From IMG/VR virus record IMGVR_UViG_3300029309_000040, positions 1 to 58,273 of that record: DNA of 58,273 bases; one strand, 5' to 3'. Origin of the DNA: a virus. Lineage: Duplodnaviria > Caudoviricetes. The notes below the pieces were generated by a model. It did not search any database. It worked only from the letters and a program-made list of their open reading frames with translations, and was not told the origin of the DNA. This document shows, in pieces, positions 1 to 58,273 of the stretch (position 1 is its first letter; the number at the start of each line of letters is the position of its first letter). A program made the translations under genes and the position numbers.

Positions 1-104
1 CGATCCTCAACCGCCATGCAAGACGCATCGCAGTGGCCTGTCGGTACGTATCACTTGATTGTGGTGTCTGACAATCGCATGTTCAAGCAAACCATCGTGA
101 AGCT
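1..104. repeat. Terminal direct repeat, left copy (circular assembly overlap)
   Basis: Identical to 58170-58273 except G99 vs T58268 (synonymous GTG/GTT in the wrapping ORF). Confidence 0.95.
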
Positions 105-108
105 ATGA
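1..108 (+). CDS. C-terminal end of the origin-spanning T9SS type A CTD protein starting at 55593
   Basis: Frame from position 1 reads RSSTAMQDASQWPVGTYHLIVVSDNRMFKQTIVKL-TGA(106-108); the stop overlaps the ATG at 105. Confidence 0.85.
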   Translation, partial: RSSTAMQDASQWPVGTYHLIVVSDNRMFKQTIVKL

Positions 109-1139
109 GACTCCTACTGGCTCTACTCCTGTGCATCCCGCTAGCGAGTGGGGCTCAGACACTAAAGAAGGCGTTTCGCTTCTCCACTTTTTACGCTGCT
201 GTCAACGGGAACAACTCCCTGTCTGACTACAATACGTACTCTGTACTTAGTGGTCCACTGCAAACAGATATTGTAGAGACCCCTTTCGACTATTCCCTTA
301 CCCTGGGGATACGAAAGATTGCTAGGTTCAAGTATGAGAACCGAGCCAATGTATTTTACAACGGTGAGGAGCACTCTTACTCTGATGCAGCTACAATCGG
401 TACGGTCAAAGGTTTTGAGTTCCTATTCGAAAGCGACTATCGCAGGCAGCAAGGGGTGCTGTACCTAGACCAGAACCACTTCCTCAGATACGTCGGGGGG
501 AGGTTCGTCGGGAAGGTAGAGTACGTCCAGGATGGTTTTGCTGACGTGAGCTACCTCGAGGCTTCGCAGAGGCTGCGCATCAACTCTAAGGGGAAGCTGT
601 CTTTCAATATAGGGGGGGCACAACGCATATCGGAACCATACGGTTATGATCCGCTCAAGCAGTGGGAGCTGCCTGACGAAAGTTTGCACTACACGCAGCT
701 TGCCTTGAGCGAGGGTTATAGCTATGACTTCGTTACAGGGGAGTACATGAACCCTGACGGGGATGTAGTAGCCAGCAGCTTCGATGTATGGCGAGAAGTT
801 GTCATCCCAAAAGTCCTTGACGATTATGTACAGCGCAAGCGAGGGGAGCTAAACACAGAGTGGAACTACTCTTTAGTAGTAGGGTTTGACTACTACCACT
901 ATACCAAAGACTTCTGGCTGCACTCTTGGGGGAATGTCTTGCCTCGACATTTAGATACGGGGTCAGAGTTTTCTTACTTCCAGCTCAACGGGGGGCAATG
1001 GGTGGATTATAGTGGGGGACTAATCTTCGGATGGAAGTTGAATAGGTCCTTCGGCTGGTTCCTAGAAGGACGATACAATAAGTACTGGAACAGGGAGTGG
1101 CACGACTTCTCGGTTGGGGTCAACTATGTAATATTCTGA
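105..1139 (+). CDS. Putative outer-membrane beta-barrel protein
   Basis: Signal peptide MRLLLALLLCIPLASGA|Q; aromatic-rich alternating beta strands; C-terminus SVGVNYVIF resembles a BAM beta-signal ending in Phe. Confidence 0.7.
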   Translation: MRLLLALLLCIPLASGAQTLKKAFRFSTFYAAVNGNNSLSDYNTYSVLSGPLQTDIVETPFDYSLTLGIRKIARFKYENRANVFYNGEEHSYSDAATIGTVKGFEFLFESDYRRQQGVLYLDQNHFLRYVGGRFVGKVEYVQDGFADVSYLEASQRLRINSKGKLSFNIGGAQRISEPYGYDPLKQWELPDESLHYTQLALSEGYSYDFVTGEYMNPDGDVVASSFDVWREVVIPKVLDDYVQRKRGELNTEWNYSLVVGFDYYHYTKDFWLHSWGNVLPRHLDTGSEFSYFQLNGGQWVDYSGGLIFGWKLNRSFGWFLEGRYNKYWNREWHDFSVGVNYVIF

Positions 1140-1140
1140 T

Positions 1141-1425
1141 ATGGCAAAGGAGATTAACGAGGATATGGGGTTCAACGTCAGCATTAAATCGCTGGCAGGG
1201 ATTGGAGTGGGGATGGCTTCTTTAATCGGGATGTGGTTTACCCTGCAGGCCGATATCGCTGAGGCTAAGATGCTCCCTGAGCCACTCCCCTCGGAGGTTT
1301 CCCGTATGGAGTTTGATATGAAAGACCAACTGATTCGTCAGACGATTATGTCTACTCAAGAGGATGTCGGGGAGATTAAAGAAGACATCAAGCGAATAGA
1401 AGAAAAGATTGATCAACTCAAGTAA
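1141..1425 (+). CDS. Single-pass membrane protein with C-terminal coiled coil
   Basis: Hydrophobic segment LAGIGVGMASLIGMWFTL followed by heptad-like EIKEDIKRIEEKIDQLK. Confidence 0.7.
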   Translation: MAKEINEDMGFNVSIKSLAGIGVGMASLIGMWFTLQADIAEAKMLPEPLPSEVSRMEFDMKDQLIRQTIMSTQEDVGEIKEDIKRIEEKIDQLK

Positions 1426-1433
1426 CATGAATT

Positions 1434-1799
1434 ATGAAAGCAATACTTGCCCTCTTTACAGCATTTGCGTTCTTCTCAGCGGCGGCCTATGTAGCCGAGG
1501 TTGCGGAGGCTGAGGTCTGCAACTCTGGTGTATGCGTCGTGGAGTTTAACGCCTCTTTCAATAAGAGCAACGGGGTGGAGTGGATTGAAAAACTCAACGA
1601 TTGCACTACTTCGCGCATAGATATCGTAGAGAGCCCAGCCCTACAGCAGAAGCATAAAATCGTAGTAGTCCCTACTATTATTATCTTTAACGACGGGGAG
1701 GAAGTAGAAAGATTTCAGGCAAATATTATGATGGCTATAGAAGCCTCAAAGTCTGATGTACAAGAAAGTGTAGATGAAATATTAATGAGCTCTTTTTGA
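1434..1799 (+). CDS. Exported thioredoxin-fold protein lacking CxxC
   Basis: N-terminal signal; VVEFNASFN in place of VVDFWAxWC; VVPTIIIFNDGEEVERF matches the thioredoxin cis-Pro region. Confidence 0.7.
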   Translation: MKAILALFTAFAFFSAAAYVAEVAEAEVCNSGVCVVEFNASFNKSNGVEWIEKLNDCTTSRIDIVESPALQQKHKIVVVPTIIIFNDGEEVERFQANIMMAIEASKSDVQESVDEILMSSF

Positions 1800-5987: not shown

Positions 5988-7397
5988 ATGGCAACTATTA
6001 ACAGTCCCGCGAGCATGGATGTCGCTCCTGCGGACTTTCGTCTGACAGCAGACAAGTATACTACTGTCGACCAGCTCATTAACACGACCAAGGACTTGGT
6101 CATTCCTGAGTTGGTTGAAACCTACGGTGATCAAGGTATCACTGGATTTCTGCGCCTTACAGGTGCTATTAAGAGCGGTGGCAGTGCCGACCAAGTAGAT
6201 TGGTGGGAAGTTGGCCGTCGTCATAAAACAGCATCTATTAACTGCGGTACTGGTACGGGTGAGACTATCACTGGTGCTGTAGCGGCTGATGGTGATCCAG
6301 GAAGCGACCCAGCTACATCGAAGTTCTTCCAGACCAATGACGTTCTGATGAACACGGTCACGGGGGCTCGTCTCTTGGTCGTGGACGACTTGAGAACAGG
6401 TGATACGGATGGTGTGACTTTGGCTCGCCTTGATGGTGTTGCTATCGCAAACGATGGCCTTACTTACACGGCTTCTACTGCTGAGACCTACATCGTTCTC
6501 GGTAACATCTACGCGCAGGGTACAAACCAGCCTGAGCACTTCCTCGACACTGATGTGTTTCGTCAGAAGAATCCATTCATGATTGTAAAGGATCGCTTCC
6601 AAGTGAACGGTTCTCAGGCTACAAACATCGGATGGGTGAACGTCGGTGGCGGAGAGTATCGCTGGTTTATGTACGGTGAGCAAGAGGCACGTAAGCGCTT
6701 CGAGGATCGCCGCGAGATGATGATGCTCTTCGGTGAGCAGAACGCAGAGACAAGCACTGGCATCCTCAAGGACCTCCCTGGTTCAGACGGATACTTTACG
6801 CAGGTTGATGCTCGCGGTATCAAGGTTACCAACGCAAACGCTAACCCACTGGATAGCTTCGCTGAGTTTGACGATATCATCATCGAGCTGGATAAGCAAG
6901 GAGCTCCTAGCGAGTACGCCATGTACTTGAACCGCAAGCAAGACCTCGCTATCGACGATATGCTTGCTGCTGGAATTGCTACTAGTGTTACGGCTGGTTT
7001 ACCCGCTCAGTTTGGTGCTTTCCAAAACAGTGCAGACATGGCCGTGCAGCTCGGATTTAAGAGCTTCACCCGTGGTGGATACACGTTCCACAAGCACGAC
7101 TGGAAGTTGCTGAACGATCCTAATTTGCTGGGTGCTAGCACGAAGTTCCAAGGTGCCATGTTGCCTCTCACGCAGGTGGCTGATGCACGTACAGGAATGA
7201 AGGCTCCTTCCTTGGCTATGTACTACAAGGAAGCTAACGGATACAGCCGCGAGATGGAGCACTGGGTAACTGGTGGTGGAGTCCTCGGACACACCAACAA
7301 TGGCGATACTGGAGCTGACGTAGCGACGTTCCACTACCGCTCTGAGGTTGCTCTCTGCGTCCGCGCTGCTAACCAGCACGTTATCCTTAAGGGCTAA
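5988..7397 (+). CDS. Major capsid protein
   Basis: 469 aa after the scaffold; RFEDRREMMMLFGE and LGFKSFTRGGYTFHKHDWKLLND resemble Bacteroidota podovirus capsids; followed by a strong hairpin. Confidence 0.8.
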   Translation: MATINSPASMDVAPADFRLTADKYTTVDQLINTTKDLVIPELVETYGDQGITGFLRLTGAIKSGGSADQVDWWEVGRRHKTASINCGTGTGETITGAVAADGDPGSDPATSKFFQTNDVLMNTVTGARLLVVDDLRTGDTDGVTLARLDGVAIANDGLTYTASTAETYIVLGNIYAQGTNQPEHFLDTDVFRQKNPFMIVKDRFQVNGSQATNIGWVNVGGGEYRWFMYGEQEARKRFEDRREMMMLFGEQNAETSTGILKDLPGSDGYFTQVDARGIKVTNANANPLDSFAEFDDIIIELDKQGAPSEYAMYLNRKQDLAIDDMLAAGIATSVTAGLPAQFGAFQNSADMAVQLGFKSFTRGGYTFHKHDWKLLNDPNLLGASTKFQGAMLPLTQVADARTGMKAPSLAMYYKEANGYSREMEHWVTGGGVLGHTNNGDTGADVATFHYRSEVALCVRAANQHVILKG

Positions 7398-23400: not shown

Positions 23401-24899
23401 CAGGGAGGTCTGACATGGTGCAGAAGATGGTGAAACGCGTGCCGCAAACCCTCAAGGCTCTGATGCAAGAAGAGGTGAGAGGCAAGGACTCTGCTCTGTC
23501 TCAGTACTACGCCGAGTTTAAAGAAGACGGTGGAAAGACGGGATGGGCATACGCTAAAAGTCTAGCACAGAGAAAAACAGAAATCGAAAATTCTCTGCGG
23601 GGAGCTGAGTTCAAAGGCAAAGGTTTTCTGAATCTTCTTGAGGGAGTCAACGACGCAGTAGAGAACAGCATCCGTCTAGCTGCATACATCGAAGCTCGTG
23701 AAGCTGGGGTGACGCGAGAGAAGGCAGCTCAACTCGCGAAGAACATCACTGTAAACTTCAACAAATCAGGTACGCTAGGCCCTGCAGCTAACAGCCTGTT
23801 TCTTTTCTTCAACGCAGCGGTGCAAGGTAGTGCCCGCACCGTTCGGAGTCTGAAGTCCCCCAAAGTGCAAAAAGCTGTAGGGCTGATGACTCTCAGTGCG
23901 GCGATGTTGGATATGGCAAATCGAGGCATGTCTGGGGAAGATGAAGATGGAGTTCTCTGGTACGACAAAATCTCCCCGTACAAGAAAGAGAGAAGCATCA
24001 TCATCATGACGGGGACAGGTCCTGACGACTACGTATCGATTCCTCTACCGTATGGGTTTGGAGCATTCTGGAGTGTCGGAACTGCGATGTCTGCTGTAGC
24101 AAACGAAGCCATGTCCGTCGATCAGGCCTTAGGCTTTACTGCTCGCAGTGTCATCACCAACTTCTCTCCAGTGCAACTGAGTGAGGGTGACAACCCTGAT
24201 GTAAACGCCCTTCGTACTATCACCCCTACCGTTCTTACACCTCTTCTCGATCGGGCAACGAATCAAACTTACTATGGTGGGAAAGTATACAGAGAGCAGT
24301 TTCCAGGTGGCACGCCTAAGCCAGAGTCTGAACTCGCGTATCGCGCTCCGCGCCTTGCCATTGAAGCTGCCCGAGCCGTAAATGTCGCTACTGGTGGTAG
24401 CCCCAACGTGCCAGGCAAGATAGATTACAACCCCGACAAGGATTGGTACACCCTTGATTTTGCGATGGGAAGTGCAGGTAAGACTGCCATTCGAACAGGA
24501 CAACTTGCCAAGGATATAGTGACGGGAGCGCCAATCAAAACTAGGAACGTTCCGTTCGCTCGGGTATTTCTCGGGAGCGCACAGGAAGACGCATACTCTT
24601 ATGACATCGATCGCTTCGAAGCGAACCGAGTAGAGGTCGAGCAGCTATTCAATGAGTTCAAGAGCAAGTCAAAGGAAGATCCTGAAGCGGGCAGATACAC
24701 GGGCATCCCAAAGCTCAAAGGGCAGCTACGTAAAGCTGAGAACCTACTGAAGGTTCAGAGAAAGAAGTTGCGCGACGCTCAGGATATCGAAAACTACGCG
24801 GAGCGATCTGAGGTTATTCAAAACATCCGCGAGGCTCAACGTAAGATTATGATGAACTTCAACAAAGAATATAATCGTGTCAGAAAAGAAAAAGATTAA
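20472..24899 (+). CDS. Large internal virion protein with LPD38-like C-terminal domain
   Basis: NPEFVLTNFSRD, ENSIRLAAY, ITVNFNKSG, FLFFNAAVQG and IPLPYGFG motifs typical of large polyvalent/ejection proteins. Confidence 0.7.
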   Translation: MEDEDFQQLLLDYAATANLPKNNGDWDVIDAKFPELEKYDRDVLHSYVLTYNQANQPDNMEDLGVINAKFPELFPVKKKDEAQVAPSVSVADGEETSAVSPSISDAPSIDSGTPEPLTAKTPDEVPFQEVQFLTGDFGNAINSVPFLGDIIDDSARAIAQGKRQGNVVNDALSVMSRGAAASDEDVLALIAEVQRMEELGPSEEFNNFQKVATEEGGVFGFLKALATEPQAVPEVFLQSMSALVNPASAAVALPIVSGGGLLGGPGGAAASLPYAMAAAGTTLETALTFAELLQEEVKEKGLEFDLDGVNAVLDDTEALNRIRRKSAVRGGVIGTVDALTGRVSTKVAQKALLTGSKAKAVVKTGAVEAVGGGVGEATGSAAIGKPIEVVEVGLEMAGGTPGAGVSLASAALRPGKYKVNGETVDRAFVQDILKNATPEELANLEISVENDKDLKAEMQEQQLRSQLAENLPRNFSEEANAELLDLEYERAVLTGKRDSRSKKKRIDEIDARIDEIFESEKMRKAQEAGMGELRETGLIVGGEKGFEVTRTVTPVEQEVATMEGGEVAGQETDIGAPLPPPEPSGKAFEAPKKTRYEATRDLLIRKFQDKFIDVFRLQDAVTAARGDLSQDQDFRMAEELFYGRAADKIEKLEGKLEDITSGMKEAGLTMDQFDEYLYARHAKERNSKIFESQKAEADKLRSKENKTSKEKNRLKQLEERMRNMDGSGMSDAEADAILQSYEKEFGDMIGPDQKSSIQNLHDLVMEITAENRALAVEAGLISQEEADRQFAEQPNYVPLQGFAVDESGAQTGSSYVSGGQGFNVRGKEGKRAKGRQSKAANPLAQLVTNSATLRIRAERNMALQKLHNLVAENPNPDVWTVLGPGQKPDPTRSVGVKINGEEHFIQFENSDHVKSLKEMGVEDIGMLGRFFRGANNWLRRSFTTINPEFVLTNFSRDIQSAVLNAVAETDIPGGQISGRSDMVQKMVKRVPQTLKALMQEEVRGKDSALSQYYAEFKEDGGKTGWAYAKSLAQRKTEIENSLRGAEFKGKGFLNLLEGVNDAVENSIRLAAYIEAREAGVTREKAAQLAKNITVNFNKSGTLGPAANSLFLFFNAAVQGSARTVRSLKSPKVQKAVGLMTLSAAMLDMANRGMSGEDEDGVLWYDKISPYKKERSIIIMTGTGPDDYVSIPLPYGFGAFWSVGTAMSAVANEAMSVDQALGFTARSVITNFSPVQLSEGDNPDVNALRTITPTVLTPLLDRATNQTYYGGKVYREQFPGGTPKPESELAYRAPRLAIEAARAVNVATGGSPNVPGKIDYNPDKDWYTLDFAMGSAGKTAIRTGQLAKDIVTGAPIKTRNVPFARVFLGSAQEDAYSYDIDRFEANRVEVEQLFNEFKSKSKEDPEAGRYTGIPKLKGQLRKAENLLKVQRKKLRDAQDIENYAERSEVIQNIREAQRKIMMNFNKEYNRVRKEKD

Positions 24900-25326
24900 G
24901 GATACAGCCCTCGGGGCGTGGCTGAGTACGAAGGTGCCAGCCCTAGCAGATAAAGTCGGGGACCTCCTCCCAGAGAGCGGGGTGCTGGGCGTAGTCAAGA
25001 ACCTCGTAGACAAAGAGCCAGGTGTATCTACTGAAGACAAGCTAGAGTTTGAGAAGCTCAAGCAGCAGCAAGAGGTAGAGGCTCAGAAGCAAGTGACTGA
25101 GCGCTGGAAAGCAGACATGGGGAGCGATGTAAAGCTCGCCAAGATGATCCGTCCCGTCACCCTTATCGCACTGATGACGATGTTTATGGTGACGATGGTG
25201 GCAGATAGCATGGACAACTGGGCCTTCAATGTAAAGGACAGCTATGTCGATCTACTGCAGATACTGATGCTTACGGCCTTTGGTGCGTACTTCGCTGGAA
25301 GAACTATCGAGAAGGCTAAGAAGTGA
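24877..25326 (+). CDS. Holin (3TM, GTA-holin-like)
   Basis: VTERWKADMGSD..LAKMIRP, hydrophobic segments, GAYFAGRTIEK C-terminus. Confidence 0.75.
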   Translation: MSEKKKIKDTALGAWLSTKVPALADKVGDLLPESGVLGVVKNLVDKEPGVSTEDKLEFEKLKQQQEVEAQKQVTERWKADMGSDVKLAKMIRPVTLIALMTMFMVTMVADSMDNWAFNVKDSYVDLLQILMLTAFGAYFAGRTIEKAKK

Positions 25327-37849: not shown

Positions 37850-38560
37850 ATGAGACTGAAAAAGCTGCAAAACGGGGGTCGGCCAGGGGGTGACCCTGTG
37901 CAAGACAGCGTAGGTACATCTGTCCCTGACACGGTTAGAAAAATACTTTTGGGTTTACCGCAAGTCACAAGGCAGATTGTCCTCGACAAAGTTGATTCCG
38001 ATCAAGGAGAAGTCGCAATCAGCGATTACACCCCTGAAGAAAAAGAGGCTTACACGAAGTACTTTGAAGAGAACTTCCCTTTTATAGATTTCACCATTCA
38101 GGAGTTTGTTTCAAACAACAGGCGTGAAGCCGCCCCCCCGCCAATCCCATCGGGTGAGCATGGGCCTGACCCAGACATTGAAATACGACCTAGTGTAAGA
38201 CCCCCCACTCCAAGGATAAAACCATTAGAAACAAAGGGGTTACCTGAAACAGAACTAGACAAAAACTTGCGCCCCATGCTACGCCTGAAAAGGGACGTTC
38301 TGATTGACGAGCAACCTCTTATGCATGACCCCGCAGAGGCGGCTCGAAAAGCTGGGTTTAGGGGGGTAAAGAGTGAGCCCGTCCAGATTGGTCTGAAGCG
38401 GTTCTTTCGCCGTCCTGACGGAACGGGGTACGTTAACACAGAGATGTTTAAATCAGGAGGAAAGATTGGCAAGAAAATCAAAGTCTTGAAGAAAGAAGGT
38501 CGACCACACGATCAAGCTGTAGCCATCGCACTATCTATGAGAGACCGAGGACAGCTATGA
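37850..38560 (+). CDS. Hypothetical late protein with xxGG motifs
   Basis: ATG 37850 lies 4 nt after TATCTTAG; LQNGG and FKSGG motifs; C-terminal KKEGRPHDQAVAIALS. Confidence 0.65.
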   Translation: MRLKKLQNGGRPGGDPVQDSVGTSVPDTVRKILLGLPQVTRQIVLDKVDSDQGEVAISDYTPEEKEAYTKYFEENFPFIDFTIQEFVSNNRREAAPPPIPSGEHGPDPDIEIRPSVRPPTPRIKPLETKGLPETELDKNLRPMLRLKRDVLIDEQPLMHDPAEAARKAGFRGVKSEPVQIGLKRFFRRPDGTGYVNTEMFKSGGKIGKKIKVLKKEGRPHDQAVAIALSMRDRGQL

Positions 38561-38640
38561 AGAGCAAAAAGCGTAGAGCCAAAGGCATGCTCCCGAAGAA
38601 GCGGCGCATGTACCAGAACGGTGGTGGTGTCGGAGACCCA
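38557..38640 (+). repeat. ~84-nt leader repeated at 39234-39317
   Basis: Both encode MKxKKRRxKGMLPKKRRMYQNGGGVGxP. Confidence 0.9.
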
Positions 38641-39234
38641 AAGAAAAATGGGATGCCAGATTGGTACCCTGCTTTCTTGCATGCTCTGTCAGGGGTGGAA
38701 TCCTCGTATGGTAAGAATATGATGAACCCCACCACTACAGCAACGGGGTTGTACCAGCAGATGTATGACGAAATCAAGGACATGCCAGAGATGAAAGGGG
38801 TGTCTAGAGCTGATTTCGCTAAAGACCTAAAGCTGCAGAGACAGATTCAAGACATGCGCATGCGTGGGGAGATACCTGGGGTGCCAGGGTTGCTGCGTAA
38901 CGCAAGAGACATCAAGTCTAAAAACCTCTCCCCAGACGAAGTAGCGGCTATGAGCCACTTTATAGGTAGGGATGGGTTGATGCAGCAGCTCAAAAGCGGG
39001 TATGATATCCCAGGGAACAACGCTTCTTTCGATGAGTACTTGTCTCGGTACCGAAAGGCAAGAGCTACATACAAACCCCCAGTAGCAGAATCAGACACTA
39101 TACCTATGCTACCCGTCTCCGCCCCACGGGAGGTGACTTCAGATTTGAAAAATGCATTTAAAATCTTGCGGGAATCCCCGCGAATCTCACCTCAGTTGCA
39201 AAACGCTATTGGTATACTAAGGGATAGTCAGTAA
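38557..39234 (+). CDS. Lytic transglycosylase / lysozyme-like virion protein
   Basis: FLHALSGVESS...ATGLYQ (catalytic ES and GLxQ motifs). Confidence 0.7.
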   Translation: MKSKKRRAKGMLPKKRRMYQNGGGVGDPKKNGMPDWYPAFLHALSGVESSYGKNMMNPTTTATGLYQQMYDEIKDMPEMKGVSRADFAKDLKLQRQIQDMRMRGEIPGVPGLLRNARDIKSKNLSPDEVAAMSHFIGRDGLMQQLKSGYDIPGNNASFDEYLSRYRKARATYKPPVAESDTIPMLPVSAPREVTSDLKNAFKILRESPRISPQLQNAIGILRDSQ

Positions 39235-42200
39235 TGAAGAACAAGAAGCGTAGACCTAAAGGCATGCTCCCTAAGAAGCGGCGCATGTACCAAAACGGTG
39301 GTGGCGTCGGGAATCCCCCACAGGGTACTATCACCCCACAAGAAGTGTTAGCTCGACTAGAGCAACTTCGAAACCCCGACAGGTTGAGAACTGGGGACGC
39401 CCCGTTCCGTACTATTAGGCAGGAGAAAAATCGTCAGGCATCGGAAGGGACGGACGAAGCTATGTTTGAGTTCATCCGTATGTTCCCTGTACTCGGTGAT
39501 GCTATTGACTTGGTTGAGGCGGGGAAGGTGAACCTTACGGGGAAGGACCTTAGCGGACGTGAGACGGACAAAAGCCTGTACAATACGTTTGCTGCTGCAG
39601 GGCTTGTCATCCCGAATGTTTTAGAAAGGCCCTTGAAGTTCCTTTTGAGGAAGGGGGCACGCAGTGCAGACGACATAGCTAGGGTAATCAGGGAGAATCG
39701 TGGTGCTGAAGAGCTCGCCCCGCTGAAAGAGTTGCAGCAGAAGGCTGAAGCGTTCGAGAGTAGGTTGATTAAGGGGGCTAGACCGACTCGTGACGCCCTG
39801 CAAAGTAGCGGTATAAACTTCAACACATACACAAGACCAGAACAAGGTGCTAAGAACTGGATGCTAGAAAACGACCCTGACCTTCTGATGAAGTTTACCC
39901 CTGAAGCATACGACCAAGGTATGTTCGATCGTAGGATGCAGGAGTTCGGGGATCAGTACCTCACAATGTATAGAGGTGTGGATGCCGACAACCCAGAACA
40001 GGCTGCGCGATATATGACTGAAGTCCAAAAAGGCGGAAACCTTGGAGGGCAAAATGCAGGTCCAGGTATTTACGGTACGTCAGAAGTAAGGGTGGCAGAT
40101 GATTACGGAGGGTATATAGGTACAGTTCGCACCGCCCCAGACGTAGCTCAGTCTTTCGACCCATCAGACAGAATCATATCTGACTTGGTTAGACTAGAAG
40201 AAGAGGGGGCAATGTATCTCCCCATTGAAGAGCGACAGCTTCTGTCTGACTTGGGGGCATTTCCTGGCATGGAAACTCGTAGCGACCGCGTAAGAGTGGT
40301 GCGTTCTCTCCCTGCTAGTCAGCAAAAGATTCTAGAGATCACCTCTCCAGGTGAGCAATTTGTGCCGAAGTACAAGAGCGACTTCGCTGGTTCAAACGTG
40401 AGTTTGCTTCCTGGAGATAAACGAACTAGAGGTCTACAGACGGCATACGAAAGGCTCTTCCCGCTTGTCGAAAAATACAAGAACGGTGGTAAGGTAGATG
40501 GGGACCCCCCACAGGGTACTATCACCCCGCAAGATGCTTTGATGCGTGCACTGCAACCTGACAATCAATTCAGGTTGACTGGTGGGGACGCCCCGTTCCG
40601 CACTATCAAGCAGGAGCAAGACCGTATGACAGCAGAGACTGTCGATGACAGCATGTTTGAGACGGCTAGGTTCCTCCCAGTTATCGGTGAGGGTATCGAC
40701 GCTGCCGAGCTAGCTAAAGTAGCCGCTACAGGTGAGGACTTCTACGGGGAGGAGCAAGACCCAGCTATGTTCGCTGGTATGACGGCGGCGGGGTACCTCA
40801 TCCCAAACATACTTGAGAAGCCTTTGAAGTCGGCGTGGAGAGCCGTAAAGAAGTTCCCAGCGAAGCTACCGAAGCGAGAGTTCCGAGAACTCCCTAGCGA
40901 GCAGAGAGAGGCGGTACTGCAAAACCTGACTCAAGCTCATAATGAGGTGTACGATATGTCACCTCGTCTGAGTGACTTGGATCGAGATGTTTTCGACCTA
41001 AGTGGAGGTTCTTACAACGTCCGCCAGCTCCCGTCGCTGATGTCAGGGAGTAAGCTAGAGAACGCTGTAGGTAAAGACGGGTTGATTCAAGTTAGTCAGA
41101 TTGAGAACCTCATCAACAGCAAAGACATCTCTGCGGCAGAGCGGGAGGCTCTGCAAGACGCCCTGTTCAAGTCTCGTGTCCAGCAGGGAGAAGCATTGGG
41201 CCTAGAATCTGGCGCACCGCTCCCTGATAAAATTGACTACCTGAACTTCAAGCGGGCAGGTATGGGGAATATGAATCGTCCTTTCCGTGTCGAGGAGAGT
41301 AACCAATACGCAGACTACGGATTGGGCAATCTAGGATACTCGTTTGATGCAATTCCTTCGTTAGAGAAACAGGGTCTAGAGGCTCGTACCAACCTTATCC
41401 GCACCACAGACCCTGAGCTGCAGTCTACTGAGTACGGTCACTTTGGGGAGGACGTCATCGGGCACTACCGCACCTTCGAGCGCCCAGACGAGGAAGGGGT
41501 GCTGTACATCTCTGAGCTGCAGGCCGACCCGCTACAAGCGCGTGGACCTGCAGGGGAGAAGCGTGTGGGTTTGAACATTGGGGAGGGAGGACCTACTACT
41601 AAGCAAGCAAGCCTCATCAAAAACCAAGACCAGTTCCTTATTTCTCACATCCTAGAGAACGAAGCGAAGGGGGCAGACAAGCTTCGCTTCCCGACAGGGG
41701 AGACGACAAGCAAGATTCAGGGTTATGGGTATCAGACCCGTAGGATTAGCAGGGCGAAGTCAGACGTAGAGTTGTACGAGAACATTTCTAAAGAAGCTAG
41801 GGGGAACGAGCTCGTGGACAAGACCTTCAAAGAACACCCGATGTTCAAGGGAAAGAGTGAGGGTGAGATTATGTACATGATGGAAGGTGTCGCTTCAGTA
41901 AGGACGAAAGTCAGTAGCCTGGGTGAAACTGACCAAAGAATTTTCAATGAATACGAGCAGGGGTTCAGGGAGCTTGGTGGTGATGATAACGCCACCCGAA
42001 AAGCCGTCTTCGATTGGTACGACGCAACCAAGAAGCTGCGCTCTTCGCGTGAGCACCTATCTCGCATCAACGCTAGTGAGCAAGCCACTCAAGGCATTAT
42101 GAAAGGTTACGACCGCCTCCCGAAAGCTTTGAAGAAGCATGGGTTGGATGCCACCAAAGTCACTGACGATGTAGGCAATACTTGGTGGGAGGTAGATATC

Positions 42201-42939: not shown

Positions 42940-43428
42940 ATGAACTTAAAAGAACCAAGCTTGCAGCTAGAGGTACTACGCTTCAGCAGCGAGAAAGACA
43001 GCACCAACGGCCTCCTGTTCGATATCACAGGGGACCATCGTGAGTTTTTATGTTACACCTTAGAAGATGAGCTCAGAGAACAAAAAATCAAAGGGGAGAC
43101 TAGAATCCCTGAAGGAGAGTATGACATCACGCTACGCACGTTTGGTGGCTTTCATCATCGATATCAAAAACGATTTGCTGATATTCATCTGGGAATGCTG
43201 TGGGTACGTGACGTCGCTGAGTTCTCGGATATTCTCATTCATTGTGGAAATACTGACGAAGACACGTCGGGCTGTCTCCTCGTGGGTGACTCGCAAGAAA
43301 ACAACCAAGTAAAGAAGAACGGGTTTATAGGGCACTCCACCCGTGCATACTTCCGACTCTACCCCTTGGTGGCCAAACAGCTCCGTGACGGGAATCGCGT
43401 TACCATCAAGTACACCGACTTGAGTTAA
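42940..43428 (+). CDS. DUF5675-like peptidoglycan enzyme (endolysin candidate)
   Basis: CYTLED, ETRIPEGEY, ILIHCGNT..DTSGCLLVG. Confidence 0.75.
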   Translation: MNLKEPSLQLEVLRFSSEKDSTNGLLFDITGDHREFLCYTLEDELREQKIKGETRIPEGEYDITLRTFGGFHHRYQKRFADIHLGMLWVRDVAEFSDILIHCGNTDEDTSGCLLVGDSQENNQVKKNGFIGHSTRAYFRLYPLVAKQLRDGNRVTIKYTDLS

Positions 43429-45453: not shown

Positions 45454-46785
45454 ATGCGGATATGTAAAGTATTCCTAATACTACTTTGGGTTACCTCTCC
45501 ACTGTACTCGCAGTGTGACTTAGAGATACTCGATGTAGACCTAATCGAGGGTAGCGTAACGATTGCATTCAACAACACGGAGAACTGCGGGGGGACGGCA
45601 GGTCCATACGGGGTATCTGAAATCCAGTTTGGGTTCCAAGCTTTAGATAGCGATTGCAACGCAATGAATCAGGGGTGGGACTTTCCCTCTGGATTCTCTA
45701 TATCTGATGATTCTAGTCACCCAGGCTGGTTGTACTCGGCTACGACTATGGAGTCCATTAATAACTGGACCAACCTTTATGATGAGCTGATAGATCCCCC
45801 ATACTATACTGGAGATACAGTAGAGTTTCCGTTGTACAACCCCTATCAAAACGATTGCGTAGATGGTCCTTTCGCAGCTCAACTGTACTGTAACCTTGAA
45901 GGGGGGATAGACTATTGGTTGAGCTTAGACCTCAGCGTACAAGTCGTGATTTGGCAGATAAGTTATGGTCCCACTATGTATGCCGAAGACGGGGGTTGGG
46001 CAGAGGTAGGCATCAACGGGGATGGCACTTCTACGGGCAATGGAGTATATGACGACGAAAACTGGGTGGACAACTGGGTGGTAGTGGGCCCCTGCGGAGA
46101 CCCCCTCCCAGAGGTTATCGTAGACACCGTTTACATTGAGCTTCCCCCAGATACTGTCATCGTGGTAGAGTACGATACAATACCAATACCTATCAATTGG
46201 TACTTCTACGACACGACCTATATATACGTCTCTGACACGCTCTATCTAACTGAGTATCTTACAGATACAATCTACGAGACTGAGTATGTATATGATACAA
46301 CCTGGGTGGATAACTATATATACGACACAACCTATGTGTATATACTTGACACCATACTATCCACAGACTACGTTTATGACACCACCTATGTATACCTGCT
46401 GGACACCCTACACGAGTACATAGTGCAAGAGCTGTGGTTGGATTGCGATACAGGTCTCCCGTGTGACGACCAGCCAGGGGTTGACGATTGCGAAGAGATG
46501 GTGGTGTTTGTACCTAACGTATTTACCCCAAACAACGATGGGGTAAACGATAGTTTCTATGCCCAGCAATCTGACCCTAGCTGTTGGAATGATTGGACTA
46601 TGACCATATACAACAGGTGGGGTAGGGTAGTTTTTCAAACCGACGACCCAGAATACGGTTGGGACGGGAGCTACAACGGCGGGGGTCACTACGTTCCTGA
46701 CGGCGTGTATGCTTGGGTGATTAAGGCCAGCTCGTACTCTGGCAGGGCCATAGGTATAGAGGGGACAGTACAGATTTTTAGATGA
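45454..46785 (+). CDS. Secreted protein with T9SS type B (gliding-motility-associated) C-terminal sorting domain
   Basis: Signal ..SPLYS|Q; VFVPNVFTPNNDGVNDSF..IYNRWG..VF..WDG..PDGVY..GTVQIFR. Confidence 0.9.
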   Translation: MRICKVFLILLWVTSPLYSQCDLEILDVDLIEGSVTIAFNNTENCGGTAGPYGVSEIQFGFQALDSDCNAMNQGWDFPSGFSISDDSSHPGWLYSATTMESINNWTNLYDELIDPPYYTGDTVEFPLYNPYQNDCVDGPFAAQLYCNLEGGIDYWLSLDLSVQVVIWQISYGPTMYAEDGGWAEVGINGDGTSTGNGVYDDENWVDNWVVVGPCGDPLPEVIVDTVYIELPPDTVIVVEYDTIPIPINWYFYDTTYIYVSDTLYLTEYLTDTIYETEYVYDTTWVDNYIYDTTYVYILDTILSTDYVYDTTYVYLLDTLHEYIVQELWLDCDTGLPCDDQPGVDDCEEMVVFVPNVFTPNNDGVNDSFYAQQSDPSCWNDWTMTIYNRWGRVVFQTDDPEYGWDGSYNGGGHYVPDGVYAWVIKASSYSGRAIGIEGTVQIFR

Positions 46786-55592: not shown

Positions 55593-58273
55593 ATGGCAAA
55601 CGATCGTGTGCGGAAACGAGTAGCTCGGCTATTAAAAAAGCACGGGCTCAAAGGCGTGAATAAGCCGAAGCGAACACCGCAGCACCCCAAAAAGTCACAT
55701 ATAGTATTAGCTAAAGAAGGGGATAAAGTAAAGCTGATACGCTACGGCGAGCAAGGGGCTAGCACAGCAGGGAAACCGAAAGCAGGGGAGAGCGCACGGA
55801 TGAAGGCCAAGCGCAAAAGCTTCAAGGCCCGACACCGACGCAACATAGCCAAGGGGAAGATGAGTGCTGCATACTGGGCCAATAAAACTAAATGGTTCTT
55901 GCTCCTCCCCATTTTGTCTCTGCAGGCGCAAAGCTGGGTAAACGTAAACTTCGTTTCTGATCAGTACGCTGACGAAAGCTCATGGGAGATACTGTCTGAC
56001 ACCAACGTTGTCGCTTCGGGGGTGGCAGAAGAAGTTCTAGTAACCCTACCCCCTGGACAGTATACGTTCGTAGCATACGATGAGTTTGGTGACGGGATAT
56101 GCTGCCAATACGGGGAGGGGTTCTTTACCCTAACTAACGGATGTGGGCTAGACATAGGGGTGTATGACTTCGCCTCTGCTCAAATGGAAATCCCGTTTAA
56201 CCTGCTCCCTTGCCCCCCACCAGTTGTTGGGTGCATGGATGAAGAGGCCAGCAATTACGACCCCTTGGCCGTTATTGATGACTACTGTCTTTACAGCGTA
56301 AGGTTTCGGCTAGACTTAAACGGGCCACACCCAGAAGGTATCGTAACACCAGAGGTGAACACAAGCTGGTATGGGTGGTGCGGTAGCTGCAATCAAATGC
56401 AAGACCTAGACGGGGACGGGATATGGGAGGTTACCATTGACTTCCCGCTAGGCGATTACCTATGGAAGTTTTCAGCAGATGATTGGGGGTATCAAGAAAT
56501 GCCAGCGGGAGTTCTAAACTCCCCGTGTTTTCTGTTTGATGAATGGGGGTTCGTAAACAGACCCTTAAACGTAGAGGGATCGCTGACCCTCCCTACCTTC
56601 TGTTGGGAGAGCTGCTTCCCTTGCGGTTCTATAGTTGGGTGTACTGACTCCACCGCCACAAACTACAACCCTTGGGCCAACTTCAATCAGGGGTGCAACG
56701 TAGTCGAGTCAGCTAATTGCGACATCACGCAAACAGAGGTTTCTGTAACTGTCATCCCCGACAACTACCCAGCAGAAACCAGTTGGGGCTTGGTGGACCT
56801 GACTTTAGGCGGGGTTATAGCCTCGATTAATACAGGGGACCTGTCTGGAGCCCCTGTGGGGATACCCCTCGTAACAAACACCTGCGTATCTATAGGGAGT
56901 GAAATACAAATCCTTGTGTTGGATTCGTATGGTGACGGAATGAATGGGTCTCAGTGGGGTGGCGAAGACGGGACGGTGATAGTAGAGGCTTGTGGTGAAG
57001 AAATCTGGTCACTCCCATCAGAAAACATAAACTTCGGTTACAGTTTAGAAGCTTCTTTCCCTGCCCCTGTATGCCAAACCATAGAGGATTTGGTGGGGTG
57101 TGGGGACCCAGATTACCTAGAGTACAACCCCGACGCCACGGTGTTTCTTGATTTGCTCTGCGAAACTCCAGTCGTATACGGATGTATAGACACGGCGTAT
57201 TATAACTACAGCCCAGAGGCTAACGTAGAGCAGCAGCCAGACTCTTGTTTTTACACGCTAACCCTTACTGACGGCGTTGGTGATGGATGGTTTGGTAGTT
57301 GGATTGGAGTAAAGCAAGGGGAGTGGATTTCCCCGCAGTACCAAATGGGGCCAGCAGATGGGGTGGAAGAAAGCTTTGAGCTATACCTCCCTTCTGACGA
57401 AGAGGTAGAGCTGTTCTTCTTCTCCACGCCGCAGTCTTTGTTTACTGTGGCTCAGTGCGGATTTATACTTGAGGGCCCAACGGGGGACACGCTCATTGAC
57501 GTGCCTCAGTGGAATATCATCCCCTTCCCATACACATACACAGCGACGACATACTGCGGCAACCTTTGCGAAGAGTATGTCTATGGGTGTATGGATACGA
57601 CGGCACAAAACTATGTCGCACTAGCCAACACCGCTGACAGCAGTTGCTACTATGCCGCTGGCTGCATGCAGGCTGGATATCTAGAGTACTACACTCAAGG
57701 GTATGAAGCAGATTATGATGATGGCTCTTGTTTAACGTTGGCTGTGTTTGGGTGCACAGAACCGACTGCGCTGAACTTTGATGAGGGGGCCAACGTGGAC
57801 AACGGTAGCTGCATCCCCGTGGTGGTGGGGTGTATGGATGTATCAGCTTACAACTACAGCGTCGAGGCTAATACCGAAGGGGAGTGCCTGTATGACGCAG
57901 GCTGCGCTACAGGTGCAGGCGTCCCATACTGGCTTAACGATTCTTGCTACGGGTGGGTGATTGAGGTGGACCCCTACTGCTGTGAAGCGGAGTGGGACGG
58001 GGGGTGTATCGGACTGTACGATTACTGTCAGCAGGGCTGGCCTACGGGTGTCACTGAATTAGCAGAGGAGGTTACTATCCGCCCGACGGTTGTAGAGCGT
58101 CATTTCTATGTGGACTCCCCATACCCGTTTGTGTTGACTGTCTTCGATGCTACAGGGAGGGAGGTGCTACGATCCTCAACCGCCATGCAAGACGCATCGC
58201 AGTGGCCTGTCGGTACGTATCACTTGATTGTGGTGTCTGACAATCGCATGTTCAAGCAAACCATCGTTAAGCT
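55593..58273 (+). CDS. 894-aa origin-spanning protein: basic N-domain, signal peptide, Cys-rich repeats, CBM48-like domain, T9SS type A CTD
   Basis: Translated by hand, open from ATG 55593 through the origin to TGA 106-108; eight GCx(D/E/Q) repeats; DLDGDGIWEVTIDFPLGDYLWKF; VFDATGREV..WPVGTYHLIV..QTIVKL. Confidence 0.85.
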   Translation, partial: MANDRVRKRVARLLKKHGLKGVNKPKRTPQHPKKSHIVLAKEGDKVKLIRYGEQGASTAGKPKAGESARMKAKRKSFKARHRRNIAKGKMSAAYWANKTKWFLLLPILSLQAQSWVNVNFVSDQYADESSWEILSDTNVVASGVAEEVLVTLPPGQYTFVAYDEFGDGICCQYGEGFFTLTNGCGLDIGVYDFASAQMEIPFNLLPCPPPVVGCMDEEASNYDPLAVIDDYCLYSVRFRLDLNGPHPEGIVTPEVNTSWYGWCGSCNQMQDLDGDGIWEVTIDFPLGDYLWKFSADDWGYQEMPAGVLNSPCFLFDEWGFVNRPLNVEGSLTLPTFCWESCFPCGSIVGCTDSTATNYNPWANFNQGCNVVESANCDITQTEVSVTVIPDNYPAETSWGLVDLTLGGVIASINTGDLSGAPVGIPLVTNTCVSIGSEIQILVLDSYGDGMNGSQWGGEDGTVIVEACGEEIWSLPSENINFGYSLEASFPAPVCQTIEDLVGCGDPDYLEYNPDATVFLDLLCETPVVYGCIDTAYYNYSPEANVEQQPDSCFYTLTLTDGVGDGWFGSWIGVKQGEWISPQYQMGPADGVEESFELYLPSDEEVELFFFSTPQSLFTVAQCGFILEGPTGDTLIDVPQWNIIPFPYTYTATTYCGNLCEEYVYGCMDTTAQNYVALANTADSSCYYAAGCMQAGYLEYYTQGYEADYDDGSCLTLAVFGCTEPTALNFDEGANVDNGSCIPVVVGCMDVSAYNYSVEANTEGECLYDAGCATGAGVPYWLNDSCYGWVIEVDPYCCEAEWDGGCIGLYDYCQQGWPTGVTELAEEVTIRPTVVERHFYVDSPYPFVLTVFDATGREVLRSSTAMQDASQWPVGTYHLIVVSDNRMFKQTIVK
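58170..58273. repeat. Terminal direct repeat, right copy
   Basis: Matches 1-104 with one mismatch. Confidence 0.95.

Follow-up and report, generated by a model that had tools for sequence, protein, structure and literature searches.

What do three adjacent envelope genes do in a tailed phage, and are they there to serve the secreted protein encoded just ahead of them? The question is raised by IMG/VR record IMGVR_UViG_3300029309_000040 (Caudoviricetes; an uncultured marine phage, probably of hosts of the flavobacteria type), which was analyzed over its full 58,273 bases (referred to here as the window). In it, the gene of cargo A, a protein with a probable C-terminal domain (CTD) of type A for a type IX secretion system (T9SS), is followed by those of a predicted outer-membrane beta-barrel (bb344), a small protein with one hydrophobic segment (cc94), and an exported protein of thioredoxin fold (trx121); we refer to the last three as the trio and give all coordinates in Table 1. 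We propose, with a probability of roughly 0.45, that the three proteins of the trio together bridge the envelope and work at lysis in the manner of spanins, and that the cargo is a separate, fast-evolving accessory gene. The proposal draws on sequence comparison, namely, the linkage of the trio across four clades, its occurrence without the cargo, the lysis genes found near it, and a conservation like that of the capsid protein.

Close relatives of the barrel were found in 438 viral contigs, from which 80 loci were kept as the sample of the window clade. The four-gene order on which an earlier note on this DNA had built is kept in these related phages: of the 80 loci, 77 have cc94, 74 have trx121, and 74 have the cargo. 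The cargo gene was located upstream of the barrel in 68 loci and behind trx121 in 6 (L017, L036, L067, L076, and L077 among them) and was not found in 6. Where it lies upstream, there is an ATGA overlap with the barrel gene in 21 loci, a one-base overlap in 1, and a gap of 14 to 568 nt in 46; some of these gaps contain another gene, for instance, that of a 113-aa basic protein in L070. After dropping the six closest loci (L001 to L006), median identity to the window was 63% for the barrel (n=74), 67% for cc94 (n=70), and 57% for trx121 (n=68), compared with 59% for the major capsid protein (MCP) (n=15) and 34% for cargo A (n=45). Given that the trio is as conserved as the capsid protein, it appears core-like, whereas cargo A, at 34%, is by this comparison a fast-evolving accessory gene, separate from the trio. 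In L125 and L129 to L132, the large terminase is ca. 20% and the barrel ca. 60% identical to those of the window, and the order is DUF5675, cargo B (a second, type B T9SS cargo), and then, on the other strand, trx121-cc94-barrel-cargo A. A similar barrel in such a different backbone indicates that the set moves between phage lineages as a block.

Three distant full-length relatives of the barrel, P0134 (34% identity), P0164 (35%), and P0146 (31%), represent the sister clades, sampled as 80 loci kept from 96 viral contigs for P0134 and as 88 loci from 222 and 8 contigs for P0164 and P0146, respectively. In the P0134 clade, 78 of the 80 loci have the barrel, 69 have cc94, and 65 have trx121, and the distance between cc94 and trx121 was always between -32 and +5 nt (65/65). 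Along similar lines, the trio was contiguous in 79 of the 82 P0164 and P0146 loci with a barrel open reading frame (ORF). The P0134 loci gave no match to type A or type B CTD profiles. Among the whole records of this clade that carry the trio, most of them at least 90% complete, 0/16 reached the cut-off for TIGR04183 and 0/16 that for CHU_C (three cargo B records, searched as a control, scored 47.7 to 56.2 bits with CHU_C), and CTD profile matches in the trio loci of P0164 and P0146 were 0/79. Since the trio is kept in clades where no CTD protein was found, coupling to the T9SS is clade specific, and the view of the earlier note that the trio belongs to a system dedicated to T9SS cargo loses its footing here.

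Around the trio, these sister clades carry lysis genes, the counts of which are lower bounds, as they come from 10 query proteins and loci of limited length. Of the 65 P0134 loci with trx121, 28 have a lysin candidate that abuts this gene (≤10 nt), 48 have one at a distance of up to 2.5 kb, and 27 have a holin-like gene at up to 3.5 kb. These neighbors match Peptidase_M15_3 (59.6 bits), the endolysin families phrog_894 (8.5e-32) and phrog_33083 (8.5e-13), and DUF5675, and the neighboring holin matches phrog_3427 (1.6e-18 and 1.6e-25). DUF5675 is proposed as a C82-like peptidase lysin in the portion of a preprint that we draw on (10.64898/2026.04.11.717860). In P0164 and P0146, 38 of 79 loci have a lysin candidate no farther than 2.5 kb away, and 50 of 79 have a lysin, a holin, or a small two-helix membrane protein, with gene orders that include barrel-cc-trx-(two-helix protein)-lysin-holin and cc-trx-barrel-M15-holin. 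For the window clade, the figure is 16 of 74 loci with a lysin candidate ≤2.5 kb downstream of trx121. The frequent place of the trio in lysis cassettes of the sister clades points to a role other than the handling of T9SS cargo. Trios with endolysin and holin genes occur in hundreds of marine viral contigs, and the holin-like protein of the window itself is 35 to 37% identical to the holins that come after the trio and endolysin in L184 and L204. In L249 to L252, L255, and L256, the cc94-trx121 pair is duplicated, giving the order cc-trx-barrel-cc-trx-M15 endolysin (ca. 6294 to 8800 in L249).

The AlphaFold2 (AF2) model of bb344, built from a 28-row alignment (mean predicted local distance difference test [pLDDT], 73.1; predicted template modeling score [pTM], 0.67), has 12 long strands. 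Its top matches among solved folds (Foldseek, VIA-align) were NanC (Z 12.9; root mean square deviation [rmsd], 4.2; 173 residues aligned) and KdgM (Z 12.9; rmsd, 4.0; 163 aligned), along with EstA (Z 12.7) and Tsx (Z 12.3). On this model, bb344 is a 12-strand outer-membrane beta-barrel, and both the strand count and the NanC and KdgM matches agree with the barrel that the earlier note had supposed. A stretch at ca. 72 to 102 is of low confidence and conserved, with the most conserved residues of the family (G68, R70, K71, F75, Y77, and G87) in or beside it; by the usual topology of barrels, it would face the periplasm. A helix-bearing insert of ca. 75 residues occupies positions 177 to 251, and six basic residues are conserved in the family (R70, K71, R114, R128, R156, and R174). 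A catalytic barrel (OMPLA- or LpxR-like, Z 9.7 to 10.4) was considered and dropped, as the conserved Ser, His, and Asp could not be placed together.

Searches of Pfam, NCBIfam, and PHROG with bb344 gave no match, and neither did those of Pfam and NCBIfam with 28 diverse family members (0/28). When the 28-row profile was aligned to 10 PorP/SprF proteins from genomes G001 and G004, the hhalign probability was 1.3% and involved the signal peptide only; with no T9SS model matched in the 28 members either, the proposed kinship with PorP/SprF was not borne out. Of the similarity to PorV, a weak fold match survives (6h3i_F, in 34th place, with Z 7.6, rmsd 6.0, and 188 residues aligned, against a top Z of 12.9), and a PorV-type NCBIfam match for bb344 was not found. 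The PorV barrel has 14 strands. In the Protein Atlas, the closest 30 clusters to bb344 were all viral and unnamed, as were the closest 30 to cc94; the named neighbors, which are leads only, were DUF6850, autotransporter, and OmpG for bb344 and DUF2730 (at 0.83) for cc94.

The second protein, cc94, has no Cys, and 45% of the residues in its tail, which shows helical periodicity, are charged. Its mean column identity is 67%, with 25 invariant columns (23 sequences), and the single hydrophobic segment ahead of this tail is consistent with the single-pass protein claimed before. For trx121, the family profile matched PDB entries with a best E value of 3e-7, and among the matches listed, 60/60 were thioredoxins or thioredoxin-domain proteins; the Pfam thioredoxin model (PF00085) gave 22.8 bits, with a cut-off of 23.5. 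In this family, the CGPC position falls within a 5-residue deletion and is replaced by an invariant FNA..N..N. The family retains the cis-Pro VPT motif, and three residues, N43, N46, and the C-terminal Phe, do not vary. The signal-bearing thioredoxin fold without CxxC is thereby upheld. As the CxxC loop is deleted, trx121 cannot do redox chemistry, and the part once suggested for it, as a redox folding helper for the Cys-rich cargo, falls away. The AF2 model of trx121 is of low confidence (pLDDT, 61), with the order beta-alpha-beta-alpha-beta-beta-alpha, and too poor for fold ranking by Foldseek, which returned thioredoxins only, at E values of at least 1.5e-3. There is no lipobox Cys in the signals of trx121 or bb344, both of the signal peptidase I (SPI) type, nor did a crude scan of all ORFs of at least 35 aa find a lipobox ORF on the late strand of the window. 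A complex prediction with trx121 (22-121), cc94 (37-94), and bb344 (18-344) scored 0.00, which speaks neither for nor against binding.

Relatives of both exported proteins are numerous. Counted as sequence clusters at E ≤ 0.001, there were 3576 relatives of the barrel among 4754 candidates and 3131 of trx121 among 3138, and on the strength of these matching proteins, bb344 and trx121 are real genes and not chance ORFs. The relatives are marine and mostly come from short contigs or contigs of phage-genome size. Among 185,579 species genomes (one each), the barrel was found only on 3 phage-sized contigs of metagenome-assembled genomes (MAGs), of 63 kb, 7 kb, and 120 kb, and among 401 genomes from the phylum of G001, its profile matched 1, G001 itself, a MAG with one such contig. 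Because the barrel family is found only in virus-type records, the gene set is not a recent host capture, and the choice that the earlier note had posed, between a phage set and a single recent host capture, goes to the former; judging by these sequence records, the trio is a phage-only gene set. Among 50,697 phage records, tblastn searches for cultured phages with bb344 and with the cc94 and trx121 of the P0134 clade gave no relevant match, and for P0195, whose barrel is 25% identical, no viral locus was found.

How cargo A meets the trio depends on the ends of the record, which carry a terminal direct repeat of 104 nt (1-104 = 58170-58273, 99% identity) that sits inside the cargo A gene; its sole mismatch is synonymous. 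Since the ends repeat, the genes at both ends are contiguous, and the 3'-open ORF 55593..58271 (893 aa) runs on into 1..108. The repeat also suggests that the record, labeled linear, is a complete circularly permuted or terminally redundant genome. Read through it, the cargo A TGA (106-108) does overlap the ATG (105-107) of the bb344 ORF, as had been claimed. Residues 1 to 89 of cargo A are a basic phrog_7595 domain, fused in frame before the signal peptide (55593-55859) in the window and in 6/6 of its closest relatives (L001 to L006); elsewhere, this domain is a separate small gene downstream of trx121. The signal peptide runs from M90 (at 55860) to ...SLQA, with a cleavage site, judged by eye, before Q113. 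Given that cargo A relatives open directly with a signal peptide, ending in ...G or A before Q, and that the window adds the 89-aa domain, the secreted protein probably begins at M90 and is cleaved before Q113.

Beyond the signal peptide, cargo A consists of Cys-rich modules (39 Cys) with linkers of the form GCxDxxAxNYxxxAxxxxxxC and then the probable type A CTD, and a Pfam scan showed no recognized enzyme domain. The CTD model TIGR04183 (Por_Secre_tail) gave 17.8 bits with the whole protein and 21.6 bits with the last 124 aa, both below the cut-off of 23. The C termini of the cargo homologues passed in all 32 cases examined, from the 74 loci with a cargo, at 25.5 to 51.5 bits, the lowest of these values being that of L004, the closest of the 32. 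Cargo A would be a Sec-exported, Cys-rich modular protein that the host T9SS would carry to the cell surface.

Cargo B contains 11 Cys, and its acidic (D/E)T-x-Y repeats form a long stretch that ends in DCDTGLPC. Its position in the window is just upstream of the large terminase, and a different phage backbone has it beside the trio. Its relatives are encoded in 37 viral loci, and in L110, L112, L118, and L120, one is found downstream of the capsid gene, the trio not being in the stretch covered. In the P0134 clade, a Cys-rich secreted LDLa-like protein of 180 to 240 aa follows the barrel in 76 of 80 loci, and it has the acidic repeat of cargo B and a DCxTGxPC motif. It had no match to the CTD models. 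In two cases (L204:8011-8556 and L155:8056-8772), its last ca. 26 residues, ...YNLNGQ.I....IYIE.G.IK..., resemble the final strands of a type A CTD. One locus of this clade (L143:8047-8751) has a gene for a glycoside hydrolase of family GH16 (58.4 bits), with no obvious signal peptide, directly after the barrel and a staphylococcal-nuclease homologue after trx121.

In the arrangement that we propose, bb344 would be located in the outer membrane, cc94 in the inner membrane, and trx121 in the periplasm, and the three would form an envelope-spanning complex, for which the topology of cc94 is itself presumed. The complex would act late on the outer membrane, together with the holin and the endolysin, with a beta-barrel and not a lipoprotein to anchor it in the outer membrane and with an inactive thioredoxin in the part of an adaptor. 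The more specific version, a three-part machine that breaches the outer membrane at lysis in marine Bacteroidota phages and has a barrel inserted by the beta-barrel assembly machinery (BAM) as its anchor, is a tentative one that we would put somewhat short of an even chance. The T4 i-spanin is 117 aa long, so a 94-aa inner-membrane component is within range, and no spanin was found in 91 of 677 phages of Gram-negative hosts (both from the sections of Kongari et al. 2018, PMC6139136, drawn on here).

Several observations weigh against a lysis role. In the window, the trio stands apart from the holin-like gene (24877) and the DUF5675 gene (42940); cargo A comes before it, and the genes of small basic and structural proteins come after it. 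A lysin candidate was not seen near the trio in 58/74 loci of the window clade, 17/65 of P0134, and 41/79 of P0164 and P0146, although some of these loci end too early to tell. Adjacency to lysis genes is no proof of a role in lysis, as accessory genes gather there too, an example being lambda bor, which adjoins Rz/Rz1. Known spanins evolve fast and use a lipoprotein, while cc94 is unusually conserved, and the predicted periplasmic part of cc94 is short (ca. 58 residues). To our knowledge, a beta-barrel spanin has not been described, and full-text searches outside subscription journals turned up neither the trio nor a spanin analogue built on a barrel. Besides, a Cys-rich secreted protein adjoins the barrel in two of the four clades, and a link between barrel and cargo therefore keeps a low probability.

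Such a link is at the heart of the earlier note, which took the four genes for one dedicated system that builds a surface structure specified by the phage, be it for exclusion, for the masking of receptors, for adhesion, or for the capture of glycans. On this reading, the barrel would be a phage-made shuttle or anchor for T9SS cargo similar to PorV or PorP/SprF, the thioredoxin fold would help to fold the Cys-rich cargo, and cc94 would tether or energize the set. The cargo is indeed found in 74/80 loci and stays with the trio even when it has moved behind trx121, the ATGA overlap of cargo and barrel recurs from the window in 21/68 upstream-cargo loci, and in another phage backbone, cargo A and cargo B both flank the trio. 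The Cys-rich secreted protein of P0134, with its cargo B repeat and DCxTGxPC after the barrel in 76/80 loci, and the PorP/SprF proteins of similar size (323 to 346 aa) that adjoin type B cargo genes in host genomes fit in as well. However, trios without a recognizable CTD protein (16/16 whole P0134 records and 79/79 loci of two clades) make this reading quite unlikely, as do the absence of PorP/SprF profile similarity (1.3%), a PorV that comes only 34th among the fold matches, the lack of any Pfam or NCBIfam T9SS model match in 28 family members, and a trx121 without its CxxC loop. Cargo and barrel are also separated by gaps of 14 to 568 nt in 46/68 loci, with other genes inserted in many, and the cargo evolves about twice as fast as the trio.

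Rather less improbable, if still unlikely, is that the trio alters the envelope without breaking it, in superinfection exclusion, in lysis timing (antiholin- or sensor-like), or in shielding progeny from adsorption to debris, and owes its place in or near the lysis cassette only to the tendency of late accessory genes to gather at that site. All three proteins are predicted to be exported or membrane bound and are encoded on the late strand, the position of the trio relative to the lysis genes varies (they are apart in the window), and the high conservation of cc94 and trx121 fits the binding of a conserved host target. Phage outer-membrane proteins with roles in exclusion or serum resistance are known, such as lambda Lom, lambda Bor, and T5 Llp. 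Yet such accessory genes are usually patchy, and the trio is present in nearly all members of four clades with capsid-like conservation; exclusion genes are typically early or expressed in lysogeny, and the trio is in the late structural and lysis region, where the tight coupling of cc94, trx121, and endolysin (28/65 abutting) suggests coexpression with lysis. We consider very improbable a third alternative, in which the barrel is a channel for solutes or polymers, either KdgM/NanC-like, for acidic oligosaccharides, or FapF/autotransporter-like, for a partner in the unfolded state (for instance, the acidic repeat protein), with cc94 and trx121 as accessories. In its favor are the top-ranking folds (NanC and KdgM, both with Z 12.9, together with Tsx, FapF, and autotransporter barrels), the six conserved basic residues, and the beta-rich acidic repeat protein that adjoins the barrel in the P0134 clade. 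Nevertheless, identity to these barrels is 8 to 14% with an rmsd of 4 to 6 Å, so the match is that of a generic 12-strand barrel; the acidic repeat neighbor is absent in two clades, fused or longer passenger-barrel forms were not found among 2603 candidates (weak evidence), and the tightly linked cc94 and trx121 are left without a role.

How Bacteroidota phages pass the outer membrane at lysis is little settled, and the trio is a concrete candidate for the missing step. If the three-part machine proposed above is real, the final step of lysis in Gram-negative hosts would have a third solution, next to spanins and disruptin, and this machine would be abundant in the ocean, with thousands of sequence clusters. 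If the trio has another envelope role, it still counts as one of the best-conserved gene sets without annotation in these phages. The set had been called unexpected in a lytic phage, but among marine phages of lytic appearance it is common, not exceptional; the two kinds of cargo, type A and type B, in turn show that it is routine for lytic marine phages to produce proteins addressed to the surface-secretion system of the host.

Table 1. Genes of the trio, the two T9SS cargoes, and the candidate lysis genes in the window
Feature	Position	Strand	Remarks
bb344, 344 aa, exported	105..1139	+	starts MRLLLALLLCIPLASGA followed by Q (cleavage between SGA and Q); ends ...NYVIF
cc94, 94 aa	1141..1425	+	one hydrophobic segment, 17-35; charged tail
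trx121, 121 aa, exported	1434..1799	+	thioredoxin fold; N-terminal SPI-type signal-like segment
Cargo A, main part	55593..58273	+	ORF leaves the record end and resumes at 1-108
Cargo A, last 35 codons and stop	1..108	+	bases 1-104 repeat 58170-58273
Cargo B, 443 aa, signal bearing	45454..46785	+	type B T9SS domain CHU_C, 66.7 bits
DUF5675 protein, candidate endolysin	42940..43428	+	family 0.6-2.7 kb from the trio in relatives
Holin-like protein	24877..25326	+	phrog_3427; GTA_holin_3TM 23.7 bits, below the cut-off of 24.8

These genes belong to a single long plus-strand block that runs from ca. 37.8 kb through the record end to 25.3 kb, in the order DUF5675 protein, GroES-like gene, cargo B, large terminase, portal, virion proteins, and cargo A with the trio, followed by four small basic proteins, scaffold, MCP (5988-7397), tail and giant proteins, and the holin-like gene. 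The closest cultured relatives of the capsid protein, at 31% identity, are podophages of Flavobacterium, Cellulophaga, and Maribacter. The four basic proteins between the trio and the structural genes (1796-2875) are Lys- and Gly-rich, of 84, 137, 68, and 70 aa, and conserved in part of the window clade; the 70-aa protein has matches to DUF5824 and phrog_28338. A common 82-nt stretch (38552-38633 and 39229-39310, 89% identity) opens both of two adjacent genes, 38557.. (225 aa) and 39234.. (1014 aa), and codes for a basic N-terminal leader of ca. 25 residues, MK.KKRR.KGMLPKKRRMYQNGGGV, possibly a targeting tag. A search of the window for tRNA genes found none, and the Bacteroidota-type promoter pattern TTTG-N17-21-TAnnTTTG had 1 match, against a chance expectation of 0.74, away from the genes. 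Among 20 marine metagenome runs, none was listed as a source of RNA evidence.

Among known systems, the PorP/SprF barrels (TIGR03519 / PF11751) are likewise outer-membrane proteins of ca. 340 aa whose genes adjoin one for T9SS cargo, and their upstream neighbors in the host genomes G001 and G004 end in type B-like tails. The cargo adjoining bb344 is of type A; bb344 has no profile similarity to them, and its family is also found in phages without a CTD protein. The 12-strand barrels of the NanC/KdgM, Tsx, autotransporter, and FapF kinds share the fold class (Z 12.9 to 12.3, 163 to 189 residues aligned), but at 8 to 14% identity, and bb344 adds the conserved segment 72-102 and the 75-residue insert at 177-251. 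Thioredoxin (PF00085) has the fold of trx121, which is without the redox-active CxxC. Phage-encoded T9SS cargo is already known from 'Cryophage', whose cargo genes, in the sections of Bellas et al. 2020 (PMC7468147) that we draw on, resemble those described here in having phage-borne type A sorting domains and strong variation between variants and are presumed to use the host secretion system. The window differs from 'Cryophage' in a Cys-rich modular cargo without a recognized enzyme domain and in the additional type B cargo and envelope trio, and the same sections make no mention of an envelope trio beside the 'Cryophage' cargo.

The closest comparison is with the two-component spanins (lambda Rz/Rz1 and T4 PseT.3/PseT.2). 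Spanins and the trio alike include a small protein of the inner membrane (for cc94, a predicted location), in which a hydrophobic segment near the N terminus precedes a helical tail, and partners destined for sites past that membrane; the genes lie side by side or overlap, and many relatives of the trio lie in a block with endolysin and holin. Unlike spanins, the trio has no lipoprotein; its outer-membrane part is a 344-aa barrel, a third protein of thioredoxin fold is added, cc94 has no Cys, the trio is far more conserved than the cargo, and there is no sequence relationship. Given that the lipoprotein that marks an o-spanin has no counterpart in it, the trio is not a spanin by membership, and we liken it to spanins by proposed function only.

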